DNA of 64,000 bases from Parcubacteria group bacterium (GCA_943357895.1 CALRGO010000003.1:15389-79388), one strand, 5' to 3'. Shown: positions 9,037 to 63,100, numbered from the stretch's first letter. The notes: a model not told the origin generated them from the letters alone. Numbers and translations: made by a program.

Positions 9037-9074
9037 ACCTTATATACTACTCCTTTATAAAAGCTCTAAGCAAT

Positions 9075-9102
9075 AAAAAACCGCCCCGTAGGGCGATTTT
9101 TT
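9075..9102 (-). terminator. Bidirectional intrinsic terminator downstream of fusA
   Basis: AAAAAA-cgccc-cgta-gggcg-TTTTTT, 5 nt after the fusA stop. Confidence 0.65.
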
Positions 9103-9106
9103 AAGA

Positions 9107-15258: not shown

Positions 15259-15266
15259 CAAATAAT

Positions 15267-15299
15267 AAAACCCCTAGGAAAAGGGGTTTTATTATTTTT
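15267..15299 (+). terminator. Intrinsic terminator after tRNA-Ser
   Basis: cccct-aggaaa-agggg followed by TTTTATTATTTTT. Confidence 0.6.
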
Positions 15300-19404: not shown

Positions 19405-20490
19405 TTACGCGCCATCATGCTCCCCTTCGTGCGGTTTTTCAAGCAAATTAACCTCAATACTCATGGCTGCGCCGCCAATCTTCAAAACGTCGCGATCAAT
19501 TTTCCCTAGCTCTTTTGCCGCCGCGTTCCACGCGTTTACCGTAGTCCCTAAGTGGCCACCCACTTTGCCAAAGTAACTTTCGTATGCCTTTAAGTGCCGG
19601 CCTAAGTCCTGCACGCGTTTGATGATGACCTCCACTTCCTTATGAAAATGCTCGCGGCGAATGCCTTGTATTACCGTCTGCAGATACGCAAGAAATGACG
19701 TAGGTGAAACGATTACCACCTTCTTATCTTTCATTGCGTACTCTATTAAATCCTGCGCGGCGCCGGCGCCTACGCGATTAACGAGTAAGTCATAATAAAT
19801 GGCCTCGGCGGGGATAAACATAAACGCAAAGTCCATAGTACCTTCTTGCGGGCGTACATATTTAGCCGTTTCGTCGATGCGATTTTTTAAATCCGCGCGG
19901 AACGCCTTTTCGAGTTGGCTGCGCTCTACGTCAGTCTTTGCCTCCACTAAGCGGTTATAGTTTTCCAAACTAAACTTAGAATCTATCGGGATAATCTTTC
20001 GATCCTCGCCCGCGCCATAAAAAACCACGGCGTCCACTATCTCGCCGTCTTTAAACGCGTACTGCATTTGGTACTGGCTGGGAGCAAAGACATTCTTTAG
20101 AAGCGTTTCTAAAAGATATTCGCCAAGTATTCCGCGCTGCTTCGGGTTCTTCAAAATATCCTCCAAGCCACGGATTTGCTCCATACCGAGCGCGACCTGC
20201 TTATTCGTCGCATCAAGCTTCACGAGTTTTTCAGTTACTTCTTTCATCATCGTCGCGCTCGATGCAAACTGCATATGAGACTGCTTATTAACATCCTGTA
20301 ATTTTTCATCAAGCGACTTACGGAGTAGCTCATTTGCGCGCGTAATTTCCGCTATCTGGTTTTGGAGCATTAAAAAGCCTTGCTCGGCGGACCGGTCGCG
20401 CGGCACGTCAAACTTAGACTTGATGAATAAAAAAAGTGCTATAAATCCAGCGATGATAATAACGGCTAGGGTGATGAGCGTATAATCCAT
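19405..20490 (-). CDS. rmuC: DNA recombination protein RmuC
   Basis: 361 aa with an N-terminal TM segment, coiled coil and RmuC C-terminal region. Confidence 0.8.
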   Translation of the reverse strand: MDYTLITLAVIIIAGFIALFLFIKSKFDVPRDRSAEQGFLMLQNQIAEITRANELLRKSLDEKLQDVNKQSHMQFASSATMMKEVTEKLVKLDATNKQVALGMEQIRGLEDILKNPKQRGILGEYLLETLLKNVFAPSQYQMQYAFKDGEIVDAVVFYGAGEDRKIIPIDSKFSLENYNRLVEAKTDVERSQLEKAFRADLKNRIDETAKYVRPQEGTMDFAFMFIPAEAIYYDLLVNRVGAGAAQDLIEYAMKDKKVVIVSPTSFLAYLQTVIQGIRREHFHKEVEVIIKRVQDLGRHLKAYESYFGKVGGHLGTTVNAWNAAAKELGKIDRDVLKIGGAAMSIEVNLLEKPHEGEHDGA

Positions 20491-25272: not shown

Positions 25273-25301
25273 CAAAAAAAACACAGCCTTGTCGGCTGTG
25301 T
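25273..25301 (-). terminator. Intrinsic terminator downstream of the 25317-25907 gene
   Basis: The minus strand reads acacagcc-gacaa-ggctgtgt followed by TTTTTTTT. Confidence 0.6.
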
Positions 25302-25316
25302 TTCTCTGGATTCGCT

Positions 25317-25960: not shown

Positions 25961-25987
25961 AAAAAAGCGGGGATTTAGAATCCCCGC
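25961..25987 (-). terminator. Intrinsic terminator downstream of the 26014-26529 gene
   Basis: gcgggga-ttctaaa-tccccgc followed by TTTTTT on the minus strand. Confidence 0.65.
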
Positions 25988-26013
25988 CTTGAAAGACAGT
26001 GTACGACACAGCA

Positions 26014-30615: not shown

Positions 30616-31251
30616 TCATTGAATACACTGACTTTTCGTATATTCCCCGACGCGTGTACGCTCTAAGTCCACCATATAGGCGCCCGTACCGAGTGCCACG
30701 CCGATATCGCGGGCTAAGGAGCGGATATATACGCCCGCACCCGTTACTGCACGCACGCGGATAGCGGGATAGTCATACGACAATACTTCGATTTCCTTAA
30801 TGACAACCGGCCGCGCCTGCATCACCACATCCTTCCCTTCGCGCGCATACGCATACGCCGGTTTTCCTTTAATTTTTAGTGCGCTATATATCGGCGGAAC
30901 CTGCATTATTTCGCCCACGAACTTTTGCACAGCAGCATCCACCGCCTCACGCGAAGGAATATCCGCAACTTCATGCGGCGTTTTTTCGCCTTCTTCGTCG
31001 TCCGTAGAGCTCGTTGCACCTAAGCGTACCGTTGTTACGTATTCCTTTTCTTTTTGTACTTCTGCCGCAAGCCCGCGCGTGGCTGTGCGGCCAACGCCAA
31101 TAACTAAAACTCCTCGCGCTAAGGGGTCGAGCGTGCCCGCATGCCCTACAGTGCGGATACCAGACGCCCTGCGGACGCGGTTAATAACGTCATGCGACGA
31201 CATGCCCGCTGGCTTCCATACGGCTATGATCCCTTCTCGAATACAATCCAT
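30616..31251 (-). CDS. truB: tRNA pseudouridine(55) synthase TruB
   Basis: AVWKPAGMSSHDV and GHAGTLDP motifs. Start trimmed to Met 31251; the ORF-track extension overlaps a 36-nt palindrome. Confidence 0.8.
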   Translation of the reverse strand: MDCIREGIIAVWKPAGMSSHDVINRVRRASGIRTVGHAGTLDPLARGVLVIGVGRTATRGLAAEVQKEKEYVTTVRLGATSSTDDEEGEKTPHEVADIPSREAVDAAVQKFVGEIMQVPPIYSALKIKGKPAYAYAREGKDVVMQARPVVIKEIEVLSYDYPAIRVRAVTGAGVYIRSLARDIGVALGTGAYMVDLERTRVGEYTKSQCIQ

Positions 31252-31263
31252 TATTTTTTGAAT

Positions 31264-31299
31264 ATGTACTATTTTATGCGGTCGCATAGAATAGTACAT
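31264..31299. repeat. 36-nt near-perfect palindrome (family member P4; core TATGCGGTCGCATA)
   Basis: atgtactatt-ttatgcggtcgcatag-aatagtacat, with one mismatch. It lies 16 nt after the hpf stop. Confidence 0.75.
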
Positions 31300-31314
31300 A
31301 ATATCCAGAAACGC

Positions 31315-38168: not shown

Positions 38169-38173
38169 ACAAT

Positions 38174-38210
38174 AAAAAACACCCCCGACGGTATGTCGGG
38201 GGTGTTTTTT
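38174..38210. terminator. Strong bidirectional intrinsic terminator
   Basis: AAAAAA-cacccccgac-ggtat-gtcgggggtg-TTTTTT. Confidence 0.75.
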
Positions 38211-38225
38211 GTTTGCCCGTAAAAA

Positions 38226-38693
38226 TTATGTATGCCGGTCGAGACGGCGCAAAATCTCCAAGATCATCTTATTCTGGTTTTCTAAGTGCTGGAGCACAAC
38301 CTCTATTTCGAATTCCGCCTTAGTATTTATTTCAAAGTCAGCCTCGGCACGCGCGTCCGAATGCCTGCCGTTTAAATTCTGACTAATCATTAAAAGCGGC
38401 ATCATCATAAGCTGAAAAATATTAACGATAAAAAGCCATAGCACGAACGCCGGATACGGGTCGAACCGCATCGGGGTGGGGGCAAGTATATTCCACCCAA
38501 GCCACAAAACGGTAACACATATAAGTGTCACAAAAAAACTCGCAGAGCCGATACAGCGCGCAATAGCAACTGCCACGCGATCAAGAAAAGAAAGCCGCTC
38601 CTTGTGCTCGATGTCCGTACGGCGCATCCTCTTACGTAAATGCTTCAGTTCGTTGAGCGTCGGCGGATTATGTAAAGAATATTCCATATACAT
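38226..38693 (-). CDS. DUF1003-like small membrane protein
   Basis: 155 aa with two TM helices and a charged C-terminal coiled region. Confidence 0.55.
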   Translation of the reverse strand: MYMEYSLHNPPTLNELKHLRKRMRRTDIEHKERLSFLDRVAVAIARCIGSASFFVTLICVTVLWLGWNILAPTPMRFDPYPAFVLWLFIVNIFQLMMMPLLMISQNLNGRHSDARAEADFEINTKAEFEIEVVLQHLENQNKMILEILRRLDRHT

Positions 38694-38752
38694 AAAATAA
38701 TATCACAAAATCAAAACAGTATAATAAAACTAAACTCACGTCTTATCCCCAC

Positions 38753-38788
38753 ATTATCGTCATATGCCGGTCGGCATATGACGATAAT
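38753..38788. repeat. 36-nt perfect palindrome P1: ATTATCGTCATATGCCGGTCGGCATATGACGATAAT
   Basis: Exact reverse-complement symmetry. 6 nt after the typA stop, and not followed by a T-run. Confidence 0.9.
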
Positions 38789-38793
38789 AGACC

Positions 38794-40587
38794 CTAGACT
38801 TTACGGCCGGCGCCCTTTAACTCACGCTTCCTGATGCGGATTGATTTTGGGGTCACCTCTACAAGCTCGTCGTCGCCGATGTATTCAAGTGACTGCTCCA
38901 AGGACATTACGCGCGGCGGAATTAAGTCGTCACTTACGGCTTCCGTCTTTGCACGGAAGTTATTTAACTGCTTTTCGCGGCAGACGTTCACAGATAAATC
39001 ATTATCCTTAGCGTGTTCGCCGCATACCTGCCCTGCGTAGACTTCTACCCCCGGCCCGATAAAGAGCACGCCGCGGTCGCGCGAGTTAAGTAAGCCATAG
39101 GCCGTCGTCGAGCCCGATTCATGTACTACGAGCGAACCATGCTTACCCGCCTCTATGGTTTCCCACTTAGGGAAGTAGCCGGCGAAGAGCGAGTTGATAA
39201 TCCCCTTACCTTTCGTGTCTATTATAAATTCGTTACGGAAGCCGATGAGTCCGCGCGTCGGCACGAAAAAGTGAAAATTAACGATGCCATTATCTACGCT
39301 CATATTGCGCATTTCGCCCTTACGGTTCGAAAGGCGTTCGATAACAATACCCGAATACGTTTCGGGTGCCTCGATCCACACGTCTTCCGCCGGCTCACAC
39401 ATCTTTCCGTCTTCAATCTTCATAATAACCTCGGGGCGCGAAACCTGCAGCTCAAAGCCGTCGCGACGCATTTTTTCTATCAAAATTGCTAAATGTAGTT
39501 CGCCGCGGCCGGAAACCACAAACTGATCCGGCGTGTCGCCCTCGTCAACGCGGAGCGCTACGTCACCATCGAGTTCGCGCATTAGGCGCTCACTGATGTT
39601 GCGCGACGTGCAGTACTGGCCTTCGCGGCCGGCAAACGGCGAATCGTTAACGCTGAAAATCATCTTCACCGTCGGCTTTTCTATGGTGATTGCCGGCAAC
39701 GCTTCAGGATTATCAATATCCGTCACCGTATCACCGATCGTAATGTCGGGAATACCCGAAAGCACGGCTATGTCGCCTGCCACGACCTCCGTGGCATCTA
39801 TCTTACCAAGACCAGAAAACATCATAAGCGAAGTGATCTTCGACTTACGTACCGTGCCGTCGTTTGCGACGATTGCCACCGGCTGAGTTGCCATAATTTT
39901 ACCGCGCGTCACGCGGCCAATACCGATCTTACCCTTATAATTATCGTACGATAAAGAAACTACCATCATCTGGAGCGGACCTTCCGACTGCGCCTTAGGG
40001 GCAGGAATATATTTCATGACCGCGTCGAAAAGCGGTACAAAGTCCGTCATTTTTTCCATCTCTGGCTCAAGGCCCGCCTTACCTAAACGGCCTGCAGCAT
40101 ATACTACGGGGAAATCGAGCTGCTCGTTTGTAGCGCCTAATTCTATAAAAAGCTCTAAAACCTTATCTAACGTGTAGTCGATGCGGGCGTTAACTTTATC
40201 TATTTTATTTACGACGACGATAATTTTATGTCCGATAGCGAGCGCCTTCTTAAGCACGAAGCGCGTTTGTGGCATCGGGCCTTCCTGCGCATCAACTAAT
40301 AAGAGCGATCCGTCTGCCATGTTCAAAACGCGCTCTACCTCGCCGCCGAAGTCGGCGTGGCCGGGAGTATCGATAATATTAATTTTCGCGTCTTTATACT
40401 GCACAGCCGCATTTTTAGAGAAAATGGTAATACCACGCTCACGCTCGATGTCGTTAGAATCCATTATCATTTCCACACCCGCCGACTTCCCTAAATCCGT
40501 ATTCGTCTGCTTTAAAAGACCGTCGACAAGAGTGGTCTTGCCGTGGTCGACGTGGGCGATAATAGCGATATTCCGTATGTCTGCCAT
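38794..40587 (-). CDS. typA: Translational GTPase TypA/BipA
   Basis: 597 aa, [10 protein letters not shown]-loop, EF-G-like domain organisation with the BipA C-terminal domain. Confidence 0.9.
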
Positions 40588-40640
40588 AAAAATAAAAGAG
40601 GGCGTGGCCCTGATTCGTAAATCAGAATACCACGCCCTCT
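40588..40640 (-). terminator. Intrinsic terminator downstream of the FKBP gene
   Basis: An 11-bp stem agagggcgtgg/ccacgccctct followed on the minus strand by TTTATTTTTAT. Confidence 0.6.
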
Positions 40641-40655
40641 AGTATTATTCAACTG

Positions 40656-41126
40656 CTATTCAACCTTCAATAATTCTATCTCGAACTTCAATGTCGCGTT
40701 CGGGGGAATTTGGCCTCCGGGCGTGCCCGTTTCGCCATAGCCGAGCTCCGAGGGAATAACGAGCGTTCGCTTACCGCCAACTTTCATGCCGGCTACGCCT
40801 TCGTCCCATCCTTTGATTACTTGACCCTCGCCGAGCGTAAAGGAAAACGGCTGGCCGCGGTCCTTCGACGCGTCGAACTTTGTGCCATCCGTAAGCGTTC
40901 CTACGTAATGCACCGTCACTTTCTTGCCCAAAACCGCTTCGGCTCCGGTACCTACTACAACATCCGTCGATTGTAATTCGTTTATCATATCTAACGTTGA
41001 GGTTGCCACAGAATCGTTACCACCCGCAAACGGAAGCGAAGCGGGCGTTCCCGTAAAGCCCAAATATGCGACATATCCCACGAATGCGACGAGTGCCACG
41101 AGCGCGATGCTTAACAGTATTTTCAT
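40656..41126 (-). CDS. FKBP-type peptidyl-prolyl cis-trans isomerase (secreted or membrane-anchored)
   Basis: N-terminal TM/signal segment. FKBP motifs VHYVGTLTDGTKFDAS and GWDEGVAGMKVGGKR. Confidence 0.8.
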   Translation of the reverse strand: MKILLSIALVALVAFVGYVAYLGFTGTPASLPFAGGNDSVATSTLDMINELQSTDVVVGTGAEAVLGKKVTVHYVGTLTDGTKFDASKDRGQPFSFTLGEGQVIKGWDEGVAGMKVGGKRTLVIPSELGYGETGTPGGQIPPNATLKFEIELLKVE

Positions 41127-41165
41127 AATTCATTAATGCTATCCGAAGATCGTTAAAATATCAAA

Positions 41166-41198
41166 AAGAAAAACAGCGGGGATATCCCTGCTGTTTTT
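41166..41198. terminator. Bidirectional intrinsic terminator downstream of the DEAD-box helicase gene
   Basis: AAAAAAA-cagcggg-gatat-ccctgctg-TTTTT. Confidence 0.65.
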
Positions 41199-41216
41199 CT
41201 AATATGCAATTCAGTC

Positions 41217-42590: not shown

Positions 42591-42679
42591 AACAATTCCT
42601 ACCTAGTCGTCACAAAAACATATGCTTTTGCAAGATAAGCCGCCTTCCCTTTAATTAATTCGTTAGGGGCGAGCTCTAT

Positions 42680-42713
42680 ACGACATGTGACCCGATACCG
42701 GTCGGCATGTCGT
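42680..42713. repeat. Degenerate palindrome P3 (acgacatg...ccgataccggtcgg...catgtcgt)
   Basis: 8-bp outer arms around a core that shares CCGGTCGGCAT with P1. 64 nt after the bcp stop. Confidence 0.6.
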
Positions 42714-42776
42714 TACGTGAACGAAAGCGCGGTCCAAGTCCTTAGTAGTGGGTGTACTATATAACGGAAGCCTACC

Positions 42777-43235
42777 TTATGTCAAGTCAGTTATGATATC
42801 CGCGGCGTGCGTTTCAGGCTTCACGTTTTCGTAAATCTTTTCGATAACGCCTTCAGGGCTTATTAAAAACGACGTGCGGAGCGTGCCCATATACTCTCGC
42901 CCCATAAACTTTTTCTTCGCCCATACGCCATATTTCCCCACAACCTCCTTGTTTTCATCAGATAAGAGCGTGAAGGATAGTCCATATTTTTGAGCGAACT
43001 TAACGTGGCTTTTAACAGGATCGACGCTTACGCCGAGCACTACTACACCGAGCGTGCCAAAATCTGGCAACATCTCCTCTATACCGCACGCCTGCTTCGT
43101 GCAACCTTCCGTATCGTCCTTGGGGTAGAAATATAAAAGTACGCGTTTACCCGCGTAATCCGCGAGATTATGAATAGCGCTGTTTTGGTCCGGCAGCGAA
43201 AATAACGGGGCTTTTTCTCCTATGGAAAGTTTCAT
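42777..43235 (-). CDS. bcp: Peroxiredoxin Bcp (thiol peroxidase)
   Basis: FYPKDDTEGCTKQAC peroxidatic Cys motif. 152 aa. Confidence 0.85.
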   Translation of the reverse strand: MKLSIGEKAPLFSLPDQNSAIHNLADYAGKRVLLYFYPKDDTEGCTKQACGIEEMLPDFGTLGVVVLGVSVDPVKSHVKFAQKYGLSFTLLSDENKEVVGKYGVWAKKKFMGREYMGTLRTSFLISPEGVIEKIYENVKPETHAADIITDLT

Positions 43236-52397: not shown

Positions 52398-53591
52398 TTA
52401 CGGCAGAAAATCTTTCGCGCGGCGGCGGATGTGGCGAGCGCGGCTCACGCGGTGCGCCTCGTCGCGGACGCGGATCATGATTTCTTTCGTGCCGCACTTT
52501 GGCATAGTGCCTATAAATACGTTGTTTTTTCTCTCTGCTCCTTTTGCGATACCCACCACGGGGATTTTTAAATTAAATTCATTAAGGACAACCCGTGCCA
52601 TATTCACTTGGCCTAATCCACCGTCTACCAAAATACCGTCTGGTAACGGCCACGCCTTGTTTTCGAACCGGCGCGTTAAAACTTCGCGCATCATACCTAC
52701 GTCGTTTGGCCCCGTAACGGTACGGATATTAAACGTACGATATTCGGCTAAATCCCTAACGCCGTCCGTAAACACAACCATCGCGCCCACCGCGTTTGTA
52801 CCTGATATATTCGATATGTCGTATCCTTCGATACGACCTATAGGACCACCCAGATCTTCGTCTTTACCGATAAGGGCGGTTTCTTGGATGTGCTGTAGGG
52901 CAAAGAGTTTGCGTTTTATGGACTCCGCTTTCTCAAACTGCAAGGACTTTGCGTACTTTTGCATATCCGCCTCGAGCCCACAAATTATTTTTTTCTTTTC
53001 GCCACGGAAGAATAATTTAAGATTACGGATGTTCTTCGCATAATCAGTTTTGGTTATACCGCCCGTGCAAACGGCGGGGCATAACCCCAACTGGCAATTA
53101 AAGCAGGGCTTATCCCCCCTTTTACCTTCTTTTAAGTGATCGCTCCACGGAAAAATATTACGGATTATGCGGAGTGCCGCGCGGGCAGATGAGGCGGAGA
53201 CAAACGGACCATATAATTCACCTTCGTCGCCCGCCAAATCTTTACCCCGCACAAGAAGCACTCGCGGAAAGATATCTTTAGTAAAAACGACGTATAAAAA
53301 ACTTTTATCGTCCTTCTCGCGGATGTTGTAGGGCGGCATATGCCGCTTAATGAGCTGGCTTTCAAGAATCAACGCCTCGATAGAGGTATCCGTATCCTCG
53401 TGGTCGATGGTAACTATTTCAGAAACTAAGCTTTCTATACGACTGTCATGTGGGCGCAAAAAATAACTCGAAACCCTGCGATGCAGGTTTGCCGCCTTAC
53501 CAACGTATAAAATGCCGCCCGCGGCGTTTTTCATGATATAGACGCCTGCTGTTGTCGGCAGGTTTTTATATAAGTTCTCGCGCGAGCTCAT
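52398..53591 (-). CDS. uvrC: Excinuclease ABC subunit C (compact 397-aa form without C-terminal HhH2)
   Basis: GIY-YIG domain (YIMKNAAGGILYVGKA), Cys-rich plus UVR motif, and RNase-H-like domain. It ends before the (HhH)2 region. Confidence 0.85.
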   Translation of the reverse strand: MSSRENLYKNLPTTAGVYIMKNAAGGILYVGKAANLHRRVSSYFLRPHDSRIESLVSEIVTIDHEDTDTSIEALILESQLIKRHMPPYNIREKDDKSFLYVVFTKDIFPRVLLVRGKDLAGDEGELYGPFVSASSARAALRIIRNIFPWSDHLKEGKRGDKPCFNCQLGLCPAVCTGGITKTDYAKNIRNLKLFFRGEKKKIICGLEADMQKYAKSLQFEKAESIKRKLFALQHIQETALIGKDEDLGGPIGRIEGYDISNISGTNAVGAMVVFTDGVRDLAEYRTFNIRTVTGPNDVGMMREVLTRRFENKAWPLPDGILVDGGLGQVNMARVVLNEFNLKIPVVGIAKGAERKNNVFIGTMPKCGTKEIMIRVRDEAHRVSRARHIRRRAKDFLP

Positions 53592-59334: not shown

Positions 59335-60103
59335 GATTTAATAGCCTCTGCCACACGAAGAAATTAATAAGGGCTATCGAGCCGACCAAAAAGACGACAG
59401 CGGTTATGAACGTGCCAACTTCCCCCGCTACTACGGAATCGACGAGTATGCTCCCTATACCGTACAAATCGTCCGCGCCCGTGCCGAACGGAATATAGGT
59501 ATGTAAAACTTCCGCAACGATGATGATGTTCCACCCCTGCGCCCACGCAAGAAGCGACCCCGTAACCAAGGACGGCGTAACGGCGGGTAAAAGCACGCGC
59601 CGGCCGTATGCCCACCCCCGTACACCAAATACCTTTGCCGCCCACGAAATGTCGCGCGGGATCGCCTTTAGCCCCGCAACGAGACTGAAGACGATATTCC
59701 AAAGCATGGAAAGGAAAATAACGAATACCGCCGCCGCATCCGTTAGCCCGAACCGCAAGAATATCCCCGCAATAAGCGGAAAAAAGGCGAGTACAGGAAT
59801 AGACTGCATGACGTCGAAAAACGGCAGAAATATATTCTCAGCGAGCGGGCTACGGCGCGAAAGAGCAACCAACGGAACGGCGGCGGCAAGTGCTAAAATA
59901 TACGCAATAAAAAGACGCGTCAGCGTGGCGAAAAAAGCGCCGGCAACGTACGACGCAGGCAAAGAAACGCTAGACCCAAACGGAAAAAGTGAAACGGCGC
60001 GAAGCGCGACCAAAAGCACGAGCACCGAAACAACGGGAATAAGCGCAGAATGAACGCGCGCAAAAAAAGTTTTAGGCGTAGGTGCGTTGCCATGAATAAC
60101 CAT
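59309..60103 (-). CDS. ABC transporter permease (NitT/TauT family, SsuC/TauC-like)
   Basis: Six TM helices and a BPD_transp_1 pattern. Start placed at ATG 60103, which has TATACT 6 nt upstream. The track's TTG start is at 60121. Confidence 0.8.
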   Translation of the reverse strand: MVIHGNAPTPKTFFARVHSALIPVVSVLVLLVALRAVSLFPFGSSVSLPASYVAGAFFATLTRLFIAYILALAAAVPLVALSRRSPLAENIFLPFFDVMQSIPVLAFFPLIAGIFLRFGLTDAAAVFVIFLSMLWNIVFSLVAGLKAIPRDISWAAKVFGVRGWAYGRRVLLPAVTPSLVTGSLLAWAQGWNIIIVAEVLHTYIPFGTGADDLYGIGSILVDSVVAGEVGTFITAVVFLVGSIALINFFVWQRLLNHAEKYRFE

Positions 60104-60194
60104 AGATATAGTATACACCAAGAAAAATAACCCCCACTATCCACTGTTTTCTGAATCCAACTCGCCTACCCCGAAAAACAAAAGTTATCCACAG

Positions 60195-60230
60195 ATTATC
60201 GTTATATGCCGACCGGCATATAACGATAAT
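60195..60230. repeat. 36-nt perfect palindrome P2: ATTATCGTTATATGCCGACCGGCATATAACGATAAT
   Basis: Differs from P1 only at symmetric positions (C/T plus partner; centre GA-CC vs GG-TC). 36 nt after the dsbB-like stop. Confidence 0.9.
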
Positions 60231-63052: not shown

Positions 63053-63064
63053 AAATAAAAAATA

Positions 63065-63100
63065 CCCCGTCAAATGACGGGGTATTTTTTATAGTACCTA
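63065..63100. terminator. Strong bidirectional intrinsic terminator
   Basis: AAAAAA-taccccgtc-aaat-gacggggta-TTTTTT. Confidence 0.75.

Follow-up and report, generated by a model that had tools for sequence, protein, structure and literature searches.

The closest known kind of element to the palindromes considered here is represented by the REP/BIME/REPIN repeats of E. coli, Pseudomonas and Stenotrophomonas (SMAG), which are short (~35 nt), strictly extragenic palindromes usually located just after genes. Classical REPs are imperfectly palindromic, have a 5′ GTAG (GT[AG]G) head and number tens to hundreds of copies per genome. They are mobilised by a cognate RAYT (a Y1 HUH transposase), whose gene is typically REP-flanked, and have a secondary role as mRNA 3′ stabilisers or weak terminators. 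The element analysed here resembles REPs in size and placement, in the combination of a hairpin with a short single-stranded motif that is conserved, and in that copies are similar within a genome and different between related genomes, with some positions persisting. Unlike REPs, it is perfect including the loop, carries its conserved motif as a 3′ tail (GTGGATAA) with no 5′ GTAG head, is apparently low in copy number, has no RAYT in the sequence covered and resides in Saccharibacteria (CPR).

Intrinsic terminators are likewise stable stem-loops found shortly after stop codons, and U-less “I-shaped” terminator hairpins have been described in Actinobacteria. The elements alternate with canonical terminators in the spacer downstream of typA; unlike terminators, they have no U-tract, their unlinked copies are conserved, the loop is self-complementary and there is a conserved tail, and some copies adjoin a canonical terminator or occupy a divergent spacer. 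The substrates of HUH/Y1 enzymes (RAYT, IS200/IS605 TnpA, relaxases) usually consist of a hairpin and a conserved single-stranded tail, and our element shares with oriT nic regions and IS200/IS605 ends a hairpin followed by ~8-11 nt conserved on one strand; no enzyme accompanies it, and its context is that of neither a plasmid nor an IS. The R6K “A site” is a hairpin with a DnaA box that assembles a primosome; a DnaA box is present here too, but beside the stem rather than inside it.

Several other classes were considered and rejected. Integron attC sites, too, are palindromic structures found where genes end, the outer ends being conserved and the inner arms variable but complementary, and some copies of our element, like attC sites, border variable genes. 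However, the R''/R' boxes (RYYYAAC/GTTRRRY) are absent, ATTTACT/AGTAAAT ends being found instead, pairing is perfect with no extrahelical bases, there are no cassette arrays and no integrase, and copies lie 7-21 kb apart. DNA uptake sequences (DUS/USS pairs) do not match either, as the half-sites are not over-represented (ATATGCCG 3 and CGGCATAT 7 times in 64 kb), nor do CRISPR repeats, as there are isolated single copies only and no tandem array with ~30-nt spacers. The genomes of Saccharibacteria and other CPR are very small, and few regulatory or mobile elements are known from them; a search of the full-text literature on Saccharibacteria/Patescibacteria retrieved nothing relevant on such repeats or on hairpin terminators.

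The window and its host lineage

The window, that is, the whole stretch of 64,000 nucleotides analysed here, is core genome: it contains str/S10 ribosomal-protein genes, tuf, fusA, groES-groEL, rmuC and uvrABC, nearly all genes being on the minus strand. DUF5671, DUF5676 and short housekeeping proteins point to Saccharibacteria as the host lineage; the same sequence is also matched by several MAGs, GCA_943359565.1 among them. The genes next to the elements had been named in a first-pass annotation made from the sequence alone, and Pfam agrees with these names (TypA/BipA, DUF1003, DsbB, BPD_transp_1, AhpC/TSA, DEAD, S30AE and TruB). Classical hairpin-plus-U terminators, which the same annotation had noted elsewhere in the window, are indeed present (Table 1). 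They are often bidirectional (A-run, GC stem, 3-6 nt loop, T-run) and form a class clearly separate from the loop-less palindromes. The whole window gave no match to Rfam 15 at gathering thresholds.

Table 1. Features discussed in the text, with their positions and contents.
Feature	Sequence	Position	Strand	Description
P1	window	38753-38788	-	perfect 17-2-17 palindrome ATTATCGTCATATGCCGGTCGGCATATGACGATAAT; spacer between typA stop (38794) and DUF1003 gene
P1 tail	window	38743-38751	-	TGGGGATAA; one mismatch vs DnaA-box 9-mer TGTGGATAA (TTATCCACA)
P2	window	60195-60230	-	perfect 17-2-17 palindrome; spacer between DsbB-like stop (60266) and ABC permease gene
P2 tail	window	60185-60193	-	TGTGGATAA, perfect DnaA-box consensus
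Second, weaker box-like 9-mer	window	60137-60145	-	AGTGGATAG; 3′ of P2, over permease promoter -35; read from sequence
P4	window	31264-31299	-	17-2-17 palindrome, one mismatch; gene-strand centre CGACCG; outer arms ATGTACTAT (B-type-like)
TGGAT(A/T)T flanks of P4	window	31252-31263 and 31300-31314		
DEAD-box promoter and leader	window	42591-42790	-	promoter conserved; sequence kept in relatives
typA (TypA/BipA)	window	38794-40587	-	stop codon 38794-38796
Canonical terminators	window	9074-9103, 15260-15297, 25277-25305, 25964-25990, 38171-38213, 41167-41200, 63055-63092		
Extended -10 promoter sites	window, L210, L216	window 38693-38707, about 60103-60115; L210 9975-10001; L216 9981-10001		
Gene-content hot spots	L206, window	L206 9378-9531, 5887-6052; window 40588-41216		
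Centre flip	L011 vs L114; likewise P1 vs P2	L011 7409-7414 vs L114 2310-2315		only asymmetric bases of the palindrome
typA-DUF1003 spacer	window			P1
typA-DUF1003 spacer	L208/L209			different palindrome of the class, with tail (DUF1003 83% identity)
typA-DUF1003 spacer	L211/L212			different palindrome of the class (DUF1003 80% identity)
typA-DUF1003 spacer	L206			different palindrome of the class (DUF1003 80% identity)
typA-DUF1003 spacer	L210			canonical hairpin+T terminator (DUF1003 83% identity)
typA-DUF1003 spacer	L216			canonical hairpin+T terminator (DUF1003 74% identity)
typA-DUF1003 spacer	L207			29 nt only, without element (DUF1003 81% identity)

Two near-identical palindromes in unrelated loci

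The first-pass annotation had proposed a family of four palindromes (P1-P4) with a common core, each placed just after a stop codon. P1 is the exact palindrome that it was said to be, and P2 is a true relative. On the gene strand, P1 consists of A-type arms ATTATCGTC with the core ATATGCCG-AC-CGGCATAT, and P2 of A-type arms ATTATCGTT with the centre GT. The two are identical at 32 of 36 nucleotides, though they lie 21 kb apart in unrelated loci; the four differences are one compensated pair (C9/G28 vs T9/A28) and the centre, GT vs AC. The P1 transcript would fold into a hairpin of 16-17 bp (region MFE -37 kcal/mol, z -4.4). P2, which is followed by an ABC permease and ATPase gene pair, is unchanged in three other assemblies of the species (L213-L215).

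The core, ATATGCCGNNCGGCATAT, has exactly two matches in the 64-kb window. Since ~1.5e-5 exact matches to its 16 specified bases are expected in 64 kb, two copies are far beyond chance. When the search of the window was relaxed, no third copy appeared at up to 3 mismatches, and no k-mers from the element are enriched in the window. At 53334-53345 there is a CGGCATATGCCG stretch in which the half-sites stand in reverse order with no visible flanking palindrome; it has no assignment to an intergenic spacer and is probably due to chance.

P1 begins 5 nt after the typA stop codon (6 nt had been given), and the corresponding distances are 35 nt for P2, 15 nt for P4 and 63 nt for P3. None of the stems has a T-run within 2 nt, in line with the earlier reading that no copy is directly followed by a U-tract, and a terminator scan retrieved neither P1 nor P4; the nearest T-rich run to P2 begins 11 nt past the stem. 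In permissive Rfam searches with P1, P2 and P3, generic hairpin matches far below threshold were the only ones obtained.

Both P1 and P2 are followed on the gene strand by one base and then by a 9-mer tail, at the same offset of 19 nt from the dyad centre. The P2 tail is the sole TTATCCACA in the 64-kb window. The second, weaker box-like 9-mer possibly belongs to the P2 locus only.

Relatives of P1 and P2 in other genomes

GTDB species genomes and JGI metagenomes were scanned with the core, and true relatives were recognised by a palindrome that reaches 9-17 nt past the core on either side. Most of the ~200 loci that the scans yielded (loci and contigs are numbered with the prefix L here) were isolated matches due to chance, in organisms unrelated to the host, or ordinary terminators in which the core happens to be present. 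In the GTDB scan, there were 1-2 exact-core matches per MAG among the matches listed. The true relatives are all in Saccharibacteria-like contigs. Because the scans required an exact core and members with other cores were met incidentally, the apparent conservation of the core is in part an effect of the search.

Two kinds of arms were found in this way. A-type copies (L011 and L114) read ATTCTCGTT, where a compensated A->C/T->G change sets them apart from P2, and then AAGTGGATAAG. B-type copies (L111, L035, L169 and L144) have ATTTACT[A/C]T.. arms and palindromes of 40-52 nt. Further contigs, obtained through homologues of the DUF1003 protein, carry palindromes with other arms and the same centre: one of 40 nt in L208/L209, directly followed by GTGGATAAC, a perfect one of 42 nt in L211/L212, and two perfect ones of 38 and 46 nt in L206. 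All 13 copies (36-52 nt) are intergenic. The density is 3 copies in ~74 kb of this genome, and ~1 per 70 kb when the typA spacer is left aside.

The core had no match among IMG/VR viral contigs. A phage or mobile origin was also considered with the B-type pattern, and rejected: the two IMG/VR matches are non-palindromic and due to chance. Some of the public records carry unexpected labels. L114 (JBASWO010000030.1) is labelled as an Alphaproteobacteria MAG and L111 as a Harrisonbacteria MAG, and both are 86-92% identical in DNA to the Saccharibacteria MAG contig L011; L035 and L111 (JAHFLO01...) come from the same Harrisonbacteria-labelled MAG and carry the same B-type element. This suggests that the records of L114, L111 and L035 are mis-binned or mislabelled.

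Anatomy of the element and strictness of pairing

The centre, CGGYCG, is constant in all copies and, in the hairpin form, gives a C-G-closed GGYC/GRCC tetraloop. The loop is self-complementary (GGCC) when Y is C, and is otherwise one transition away from this (GGTC/GACC). The outer ends are of the ATT.. / ..TACT[A/C]T type in all copies, and arm length varies from 17 to 25 nt. A one-sided tail, (T)G-N-GGATAA, is seen in about half of the copies, and it starts 19 nt from the dyad in A-type and B-type copies alike. The DnaA-box 9-mer TTATNCACA is perfect in P2 and L208 and has one mismatch in P1, L114/L011 and L169, and no recognisable box is present in L035, L206a/b, L211 and P4 (about half of the copies).

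Pairing between the arms is strict. At 311 CGGYCG centres surveyed in 193 kb of Saccharibacteria-like sequence, the number of matches between arms was bimodal, either 0-8 (background) or 11-12 (members) of 12; since nothing falls between 8 and 11, there are no decayed copies. When 11 distinct copies are aligned on their centres, 97.7% of cells prove to be paired and double changes are seen at 15 of the 16 pairs (66 compensatory cells), with no pair showing one-sided changes of the G-U type. In hairpins of the same loci that are followed by T-runs, 6.5% of pairs (31/479) are G-U, and the bidirectional ones among them have none. The predicted hairpins of the elements comprise 16-25 bp, with a region MFE of -34 to -40 kcal/mol and z of -3.5 to -4.4.

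Three further properties were checked and discarded as general features. Extension of the stem by pairing of the tail with the left flank holds in L169 only. The orientation of the tail relative to replication is not constant, the tail being on the G-rich strand in the window and in L208 and L144, and not so in L114/L011. Arms cannot be read as promoters throughout, as some contain -10-like hexamers (GATAAT, TAAAAT), with no consistent -35, and B-type arms contain none. The apparent DUF1003 and permease promoters lie 45-90 nt 3′ of the elements, directly before the ATG.

Turnover at orthologous spacers

The spacer between the glmM-like gene and the PIF1-like helicase gene is orthologous in L114/L011, L111 and L169 (helicase 89-94% identical in protein). 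It houses an A-type element in L114/L011 and a B-type element in L111/L169, and the spacers are unalignable. L011 and L114 are 92.4% identical over 1.8 kb, and from -44 to +54 of the core start their only difference is a flip of the centre, AC<->GT. Such near identity of the spacer indicates strong constraint or very recent homogenisation. The flip itself could have arisen by inversion of the loop through template switching, or by two transitions through CGGCCG (e.g. by deamination of loop cytosines).

A similar exchange of contents is found after typA, where close relatives have different palindromes, a canonical terminator or no element at all (Table 1); elements of this series begin 5-62 nt after the stop codon. 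Copies are homogeneous within a genome and divergent between genomes: P1 resembles P2 in the window, and L035 resembles L111 in MAG nzgw435. As to gene orientation, P1, P2, P4 and L206a are in spacers of tandem genes, L114, L111 and L035 are in convergent spacers, and the L144 element is probably between divergent genes, an assignment that depends on a 231-aa ORF with no annotation. Neither target-site duplications nor signatures of empty sites could be clearly recognised, the only candidates being weak and unconvincing repeats of TGGAT (P4) and GTG(G)ATAA (P2).

P4 is a diverged member and P3 is unrelated

The family had been drawn too wide: P1 and P2 do share a core, P4 has another one, and P3 drops out. 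P4 has the core TATGCG-GT-CGCATA and has in common with P1 and P2 only the architecture, the CGGTCG centre and outer arms of the TACTAT type. It is a diverged member of the family.

P4 is located between hpf and truB, 12 nt ahead of the likely truB start, an ATG at 31251, which leaves no space there for a new promoter. The called truB start (ATG at 31299-31297, 227 aa) falls within P4 (window 31249-31299); alignment with TruB of relatives, which is 197-212 aa long, suggests that the true start is the ATG at 31251. P4 is specific to the species of the window, being present in L003 (same species) and absent from the hpf-truB junction of L208, L206 and L211, the two genes abutting each other in L208. 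TGGAT(A/T)T flanks P4 on both sides, as CTGGATATT upstream and ATGGATTG at the truB start, and relatives that have no P4 have a single TAATGGATATGG at the junction. The pair may be a target duplication. TGGAT(A/T)T also resembles the GGATAA tail of other copies.

P3 (42680-42713) is not a palindrome of the P1 kind: its outer stem comprises 8 bp and its interior is irregular. It is a stem within a leader of ~160 nt that lies 5′ of the DEAD-box helicase gene and 3′ of a strong TTGACA-18-TATAGT promoter. Its sequence is kept in L208 and L210 and in part in L206 and L212. The leader has no Rfam match and may have a regulatory role not described before, perhaps in autoregulation or in the response to cold. 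An 11-nt string, ATGCCGACCGG, is common to this leader and P1.

What the element may be

We tentatively regard P1, P2 and, more distantly, P4 as copies of a clade-specific, low-copy, REP-like intergenic hairpin repeat that is copied and maintained as a perfect palindrome at the DNA level and would also give a stable hairpin in the transcript, and put the probability of this reading at roughly 45%. Of the possibilities named in the first-pass annotation, a REP-like family is the best fit, the elements being dispersed, intergenic, gained and lost, and made of a hairpin with a tail. What is missing from the picture is the mobilising enzyme, and membership in the REP class is for this reason unproven. 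Genes for RAYT, Y1 or other HUH proteins, transposases and recombinases were found neither in the window nor in ~150 kb of annotated neighbouring loci, and a scan of ~250 kb for the HUH...Y motif was negative, with <10% of any one genome covered.

The repeated unit consists of two parts, a 36-52 nt perfect DNA palindrome with the tip C(GGYC)G and ATT-/TACT-type outer ends, and a tail, G-N-GGATAA, present on one side only and always equally far from the dyad. In single-stranded DNA, the palindrome would fold into a hairpin (or be extruded as a cruciform), and this folded form may be the one copied into new intergenic sites. The arms would stay identical because either could serve as the template for the other or for its correction. 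An enzyme of the HUH/Y1 type could use the hairpin and the tail as a substrate; a unit of 36 bp is too short for a conventional transposon with terminal inverted repeats, which would favour a single-strand hairpin mechanism. Once transcribed, the element would form a 16-25 bp hairpin at the 3′ end of a gene or between cistrons, and this hairpin might terminate transcription weakly in the absence of a U-tract or block 3′ exonucleases. Weak termination or 3′-end protection of this sort would fit the alternation with canonical terminators after typA.

Some observations count against a REP-like repeat. The apparent copy number is low, and classical REPs are far more abundant. The absence of G-U pairs could reflect selection for folding of transcripts of both strands, and conservation of the L011/L114 spacer suggests a host function over a purely selfish element.

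An element that acts in RNA only, as a U-less bidirectional intrinsic terminator or as an RNase III or 3′-exonuclease-barrier hairpin between cistrons, is the strongest competitor, though we consider it unlikely. Such a role is suggested by the position of most copies shortly after a stop codon, by the very high stability of the hairpins and by the typA spacer of L210 and L216, where a canonical terminator looks interchangeable with the element. The tail, when present, is always on the side of the palindrome away from the gene that ends there (P1, P2, L208, L114 and L169), and exclusive Watson-Crick pairing is expected if sense and antisense RNA must both fold. However, no stem is abutted by a U-tract, folding of RNA does not require a palindromic loop, and structure leaves the constant tip and outer ends, the conserved tail and the identity of unlinked copies unexplained: a purely structural terminator would not be as similar in two unlinked loci as P1 and P2 are (32/36 and the tail). 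Most copies do stand at the 3′ end of a transcription unit, but some do not fit this pattern. The L035 and L206a elements are not simply the terminators of their genes, since a canonical one is located 24-30 nt away, the L144 element lies between apparently divergent genes, and at P4 a terminator would leave truB with no room for a new promoter. A U-less terminator or processing site, which the first-pass annotation had also proposed, may be a by-product of transcription through the element, with the self-complementary loop and the contexts of L035, L206 and L144 still unaccounted for.

A site for a protein that binds double-stranded DNA is improbable. The candidates are an operator bound by a regulator in dimeric or tetrameric form, a site for a nucleoid or segregation protein, and a DnaA site formed by the TGTGGATAA tail. 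Dyad symmetry is perfect through the centre, and the conserved CGGYCG centre together with a 9-mer at a fixed 19 nt suggests a fixed protein geometry. In P2 and L208 the tail is the strongest DnaA-box consensus, with one mismatch in P1, L114 and L169; P1, P2 and L144 lie 60-130 nt upstream of start codons, the copy number is as low as that of a regulon, and the L011/L114 spacer is strongly constrained. An operator, the third of the earlier proposals, is nevertheless poorly supported. L114, L111 and L035 are in convergent spacers with no promoter, distances to promoters and starts are inconsistent (~60 to 130 nt to the start), arms vary from 17 to 25 nt, and variable, presumably uncontacted segments of the arms remain perfectly palindromic. 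Moreover, whole arms have been exchanged between genomes in which the flanking proteins are 94% identical, and about half of the copies have no recognisable box.

By analogy with the ABC-primosome signal of the R6K A site, the hairpin with its DnaA box could be a dispersed chromosomal replication signal, at which DnaA would load helicase and primase on folded single-stranded DNA, or a DnaA titration site; we give this little credence. If it were true, sites of DnaA-dependent restart or control would be dispersed over these reduced genomes. An alternative, of as little weight, is that the palindromes perfect themselves through template switching, with no enzyme of their own.

A site for site-specific recombination, either lox/dif-like (with CGGTCG as the 6-bp overlap) or hix-like (with GT/AC as the 2-bp core), that mediates inversion or cassette gain and loss is hardly probable: the 17-2-17 or arm-6-arm layout with an asymmetric centre does match the core sites of recombinases, both orientations of the centre are represented (P1 vs P2; L011 vs L114), and several copies adjoin spacers of variable gene content (an inserted LMWPc gene following the palindrome of L206, small PF1765-like genes following L206a, and genes of defence type in L144, namely a PycTM effector and a PD-(D/E)XK nuclease), but no recombinase gene was found close to any copy, active sites across a core region (ribosomal-protein genes, groESL, uvrABC) would cause deleterious deletions and inversions, gene order from P1 to P2 is the same as in relatives, and two transitions through the palindromic CGGCCG could also flip the centre.

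As a REP-like repeat, the element extends a known phenomenon to a new phylum and overturns nothing; the interest lies mainly in the host lineage, the strict perfection and the DnaA-box tail. A structured repeat that turns over between close relatives and is yet perfectly symmetric and locally conserved would be a useful marker of genome dynamics in CPR. It may help explain how transcripts end or are processed in Saccharibacteria without U-tracts, and it is a candidate safe or targeted insertion site for emerging CPR genetic tools. Should the DnaA-box tail be functional, a dispersed repeat would be linked to replication control.

Additional features of the window

An RmuC-family gene adjoins groES-groEL at 19405-20490 on the minus strand. 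E. coli RmuC is reported to limit inversions at short inverted repeats, and the RmuC of the window may bear on how palindromes are tolerated in this host.

Apparent extended -10 promoters (TGTGATATT, TATACT and TGATATAAT) are found before the DUF1003 and ABC-permease genes. They end 5-9 nt ahead of the ATG, and there is no Shine-Dalgarno sequence, which suggests that mRNAs in this lineage are leaderless. The DUF1003 start may be the ATG at 38693 or that at 38687, and the permease probably starts with the ATG at 60103 and not with the TTG at 60121.

The spacers that follow typA and the DEAD-box helicase gene are hot spots at which gene content changes among relatives. In L206, an LMWPc phosphatase gene is inserted, and 1-3 small genes, a PF1765-like one included, are present or absent. 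Two borders of these hot spots are occupied by palindromes of the P1/P2 class.
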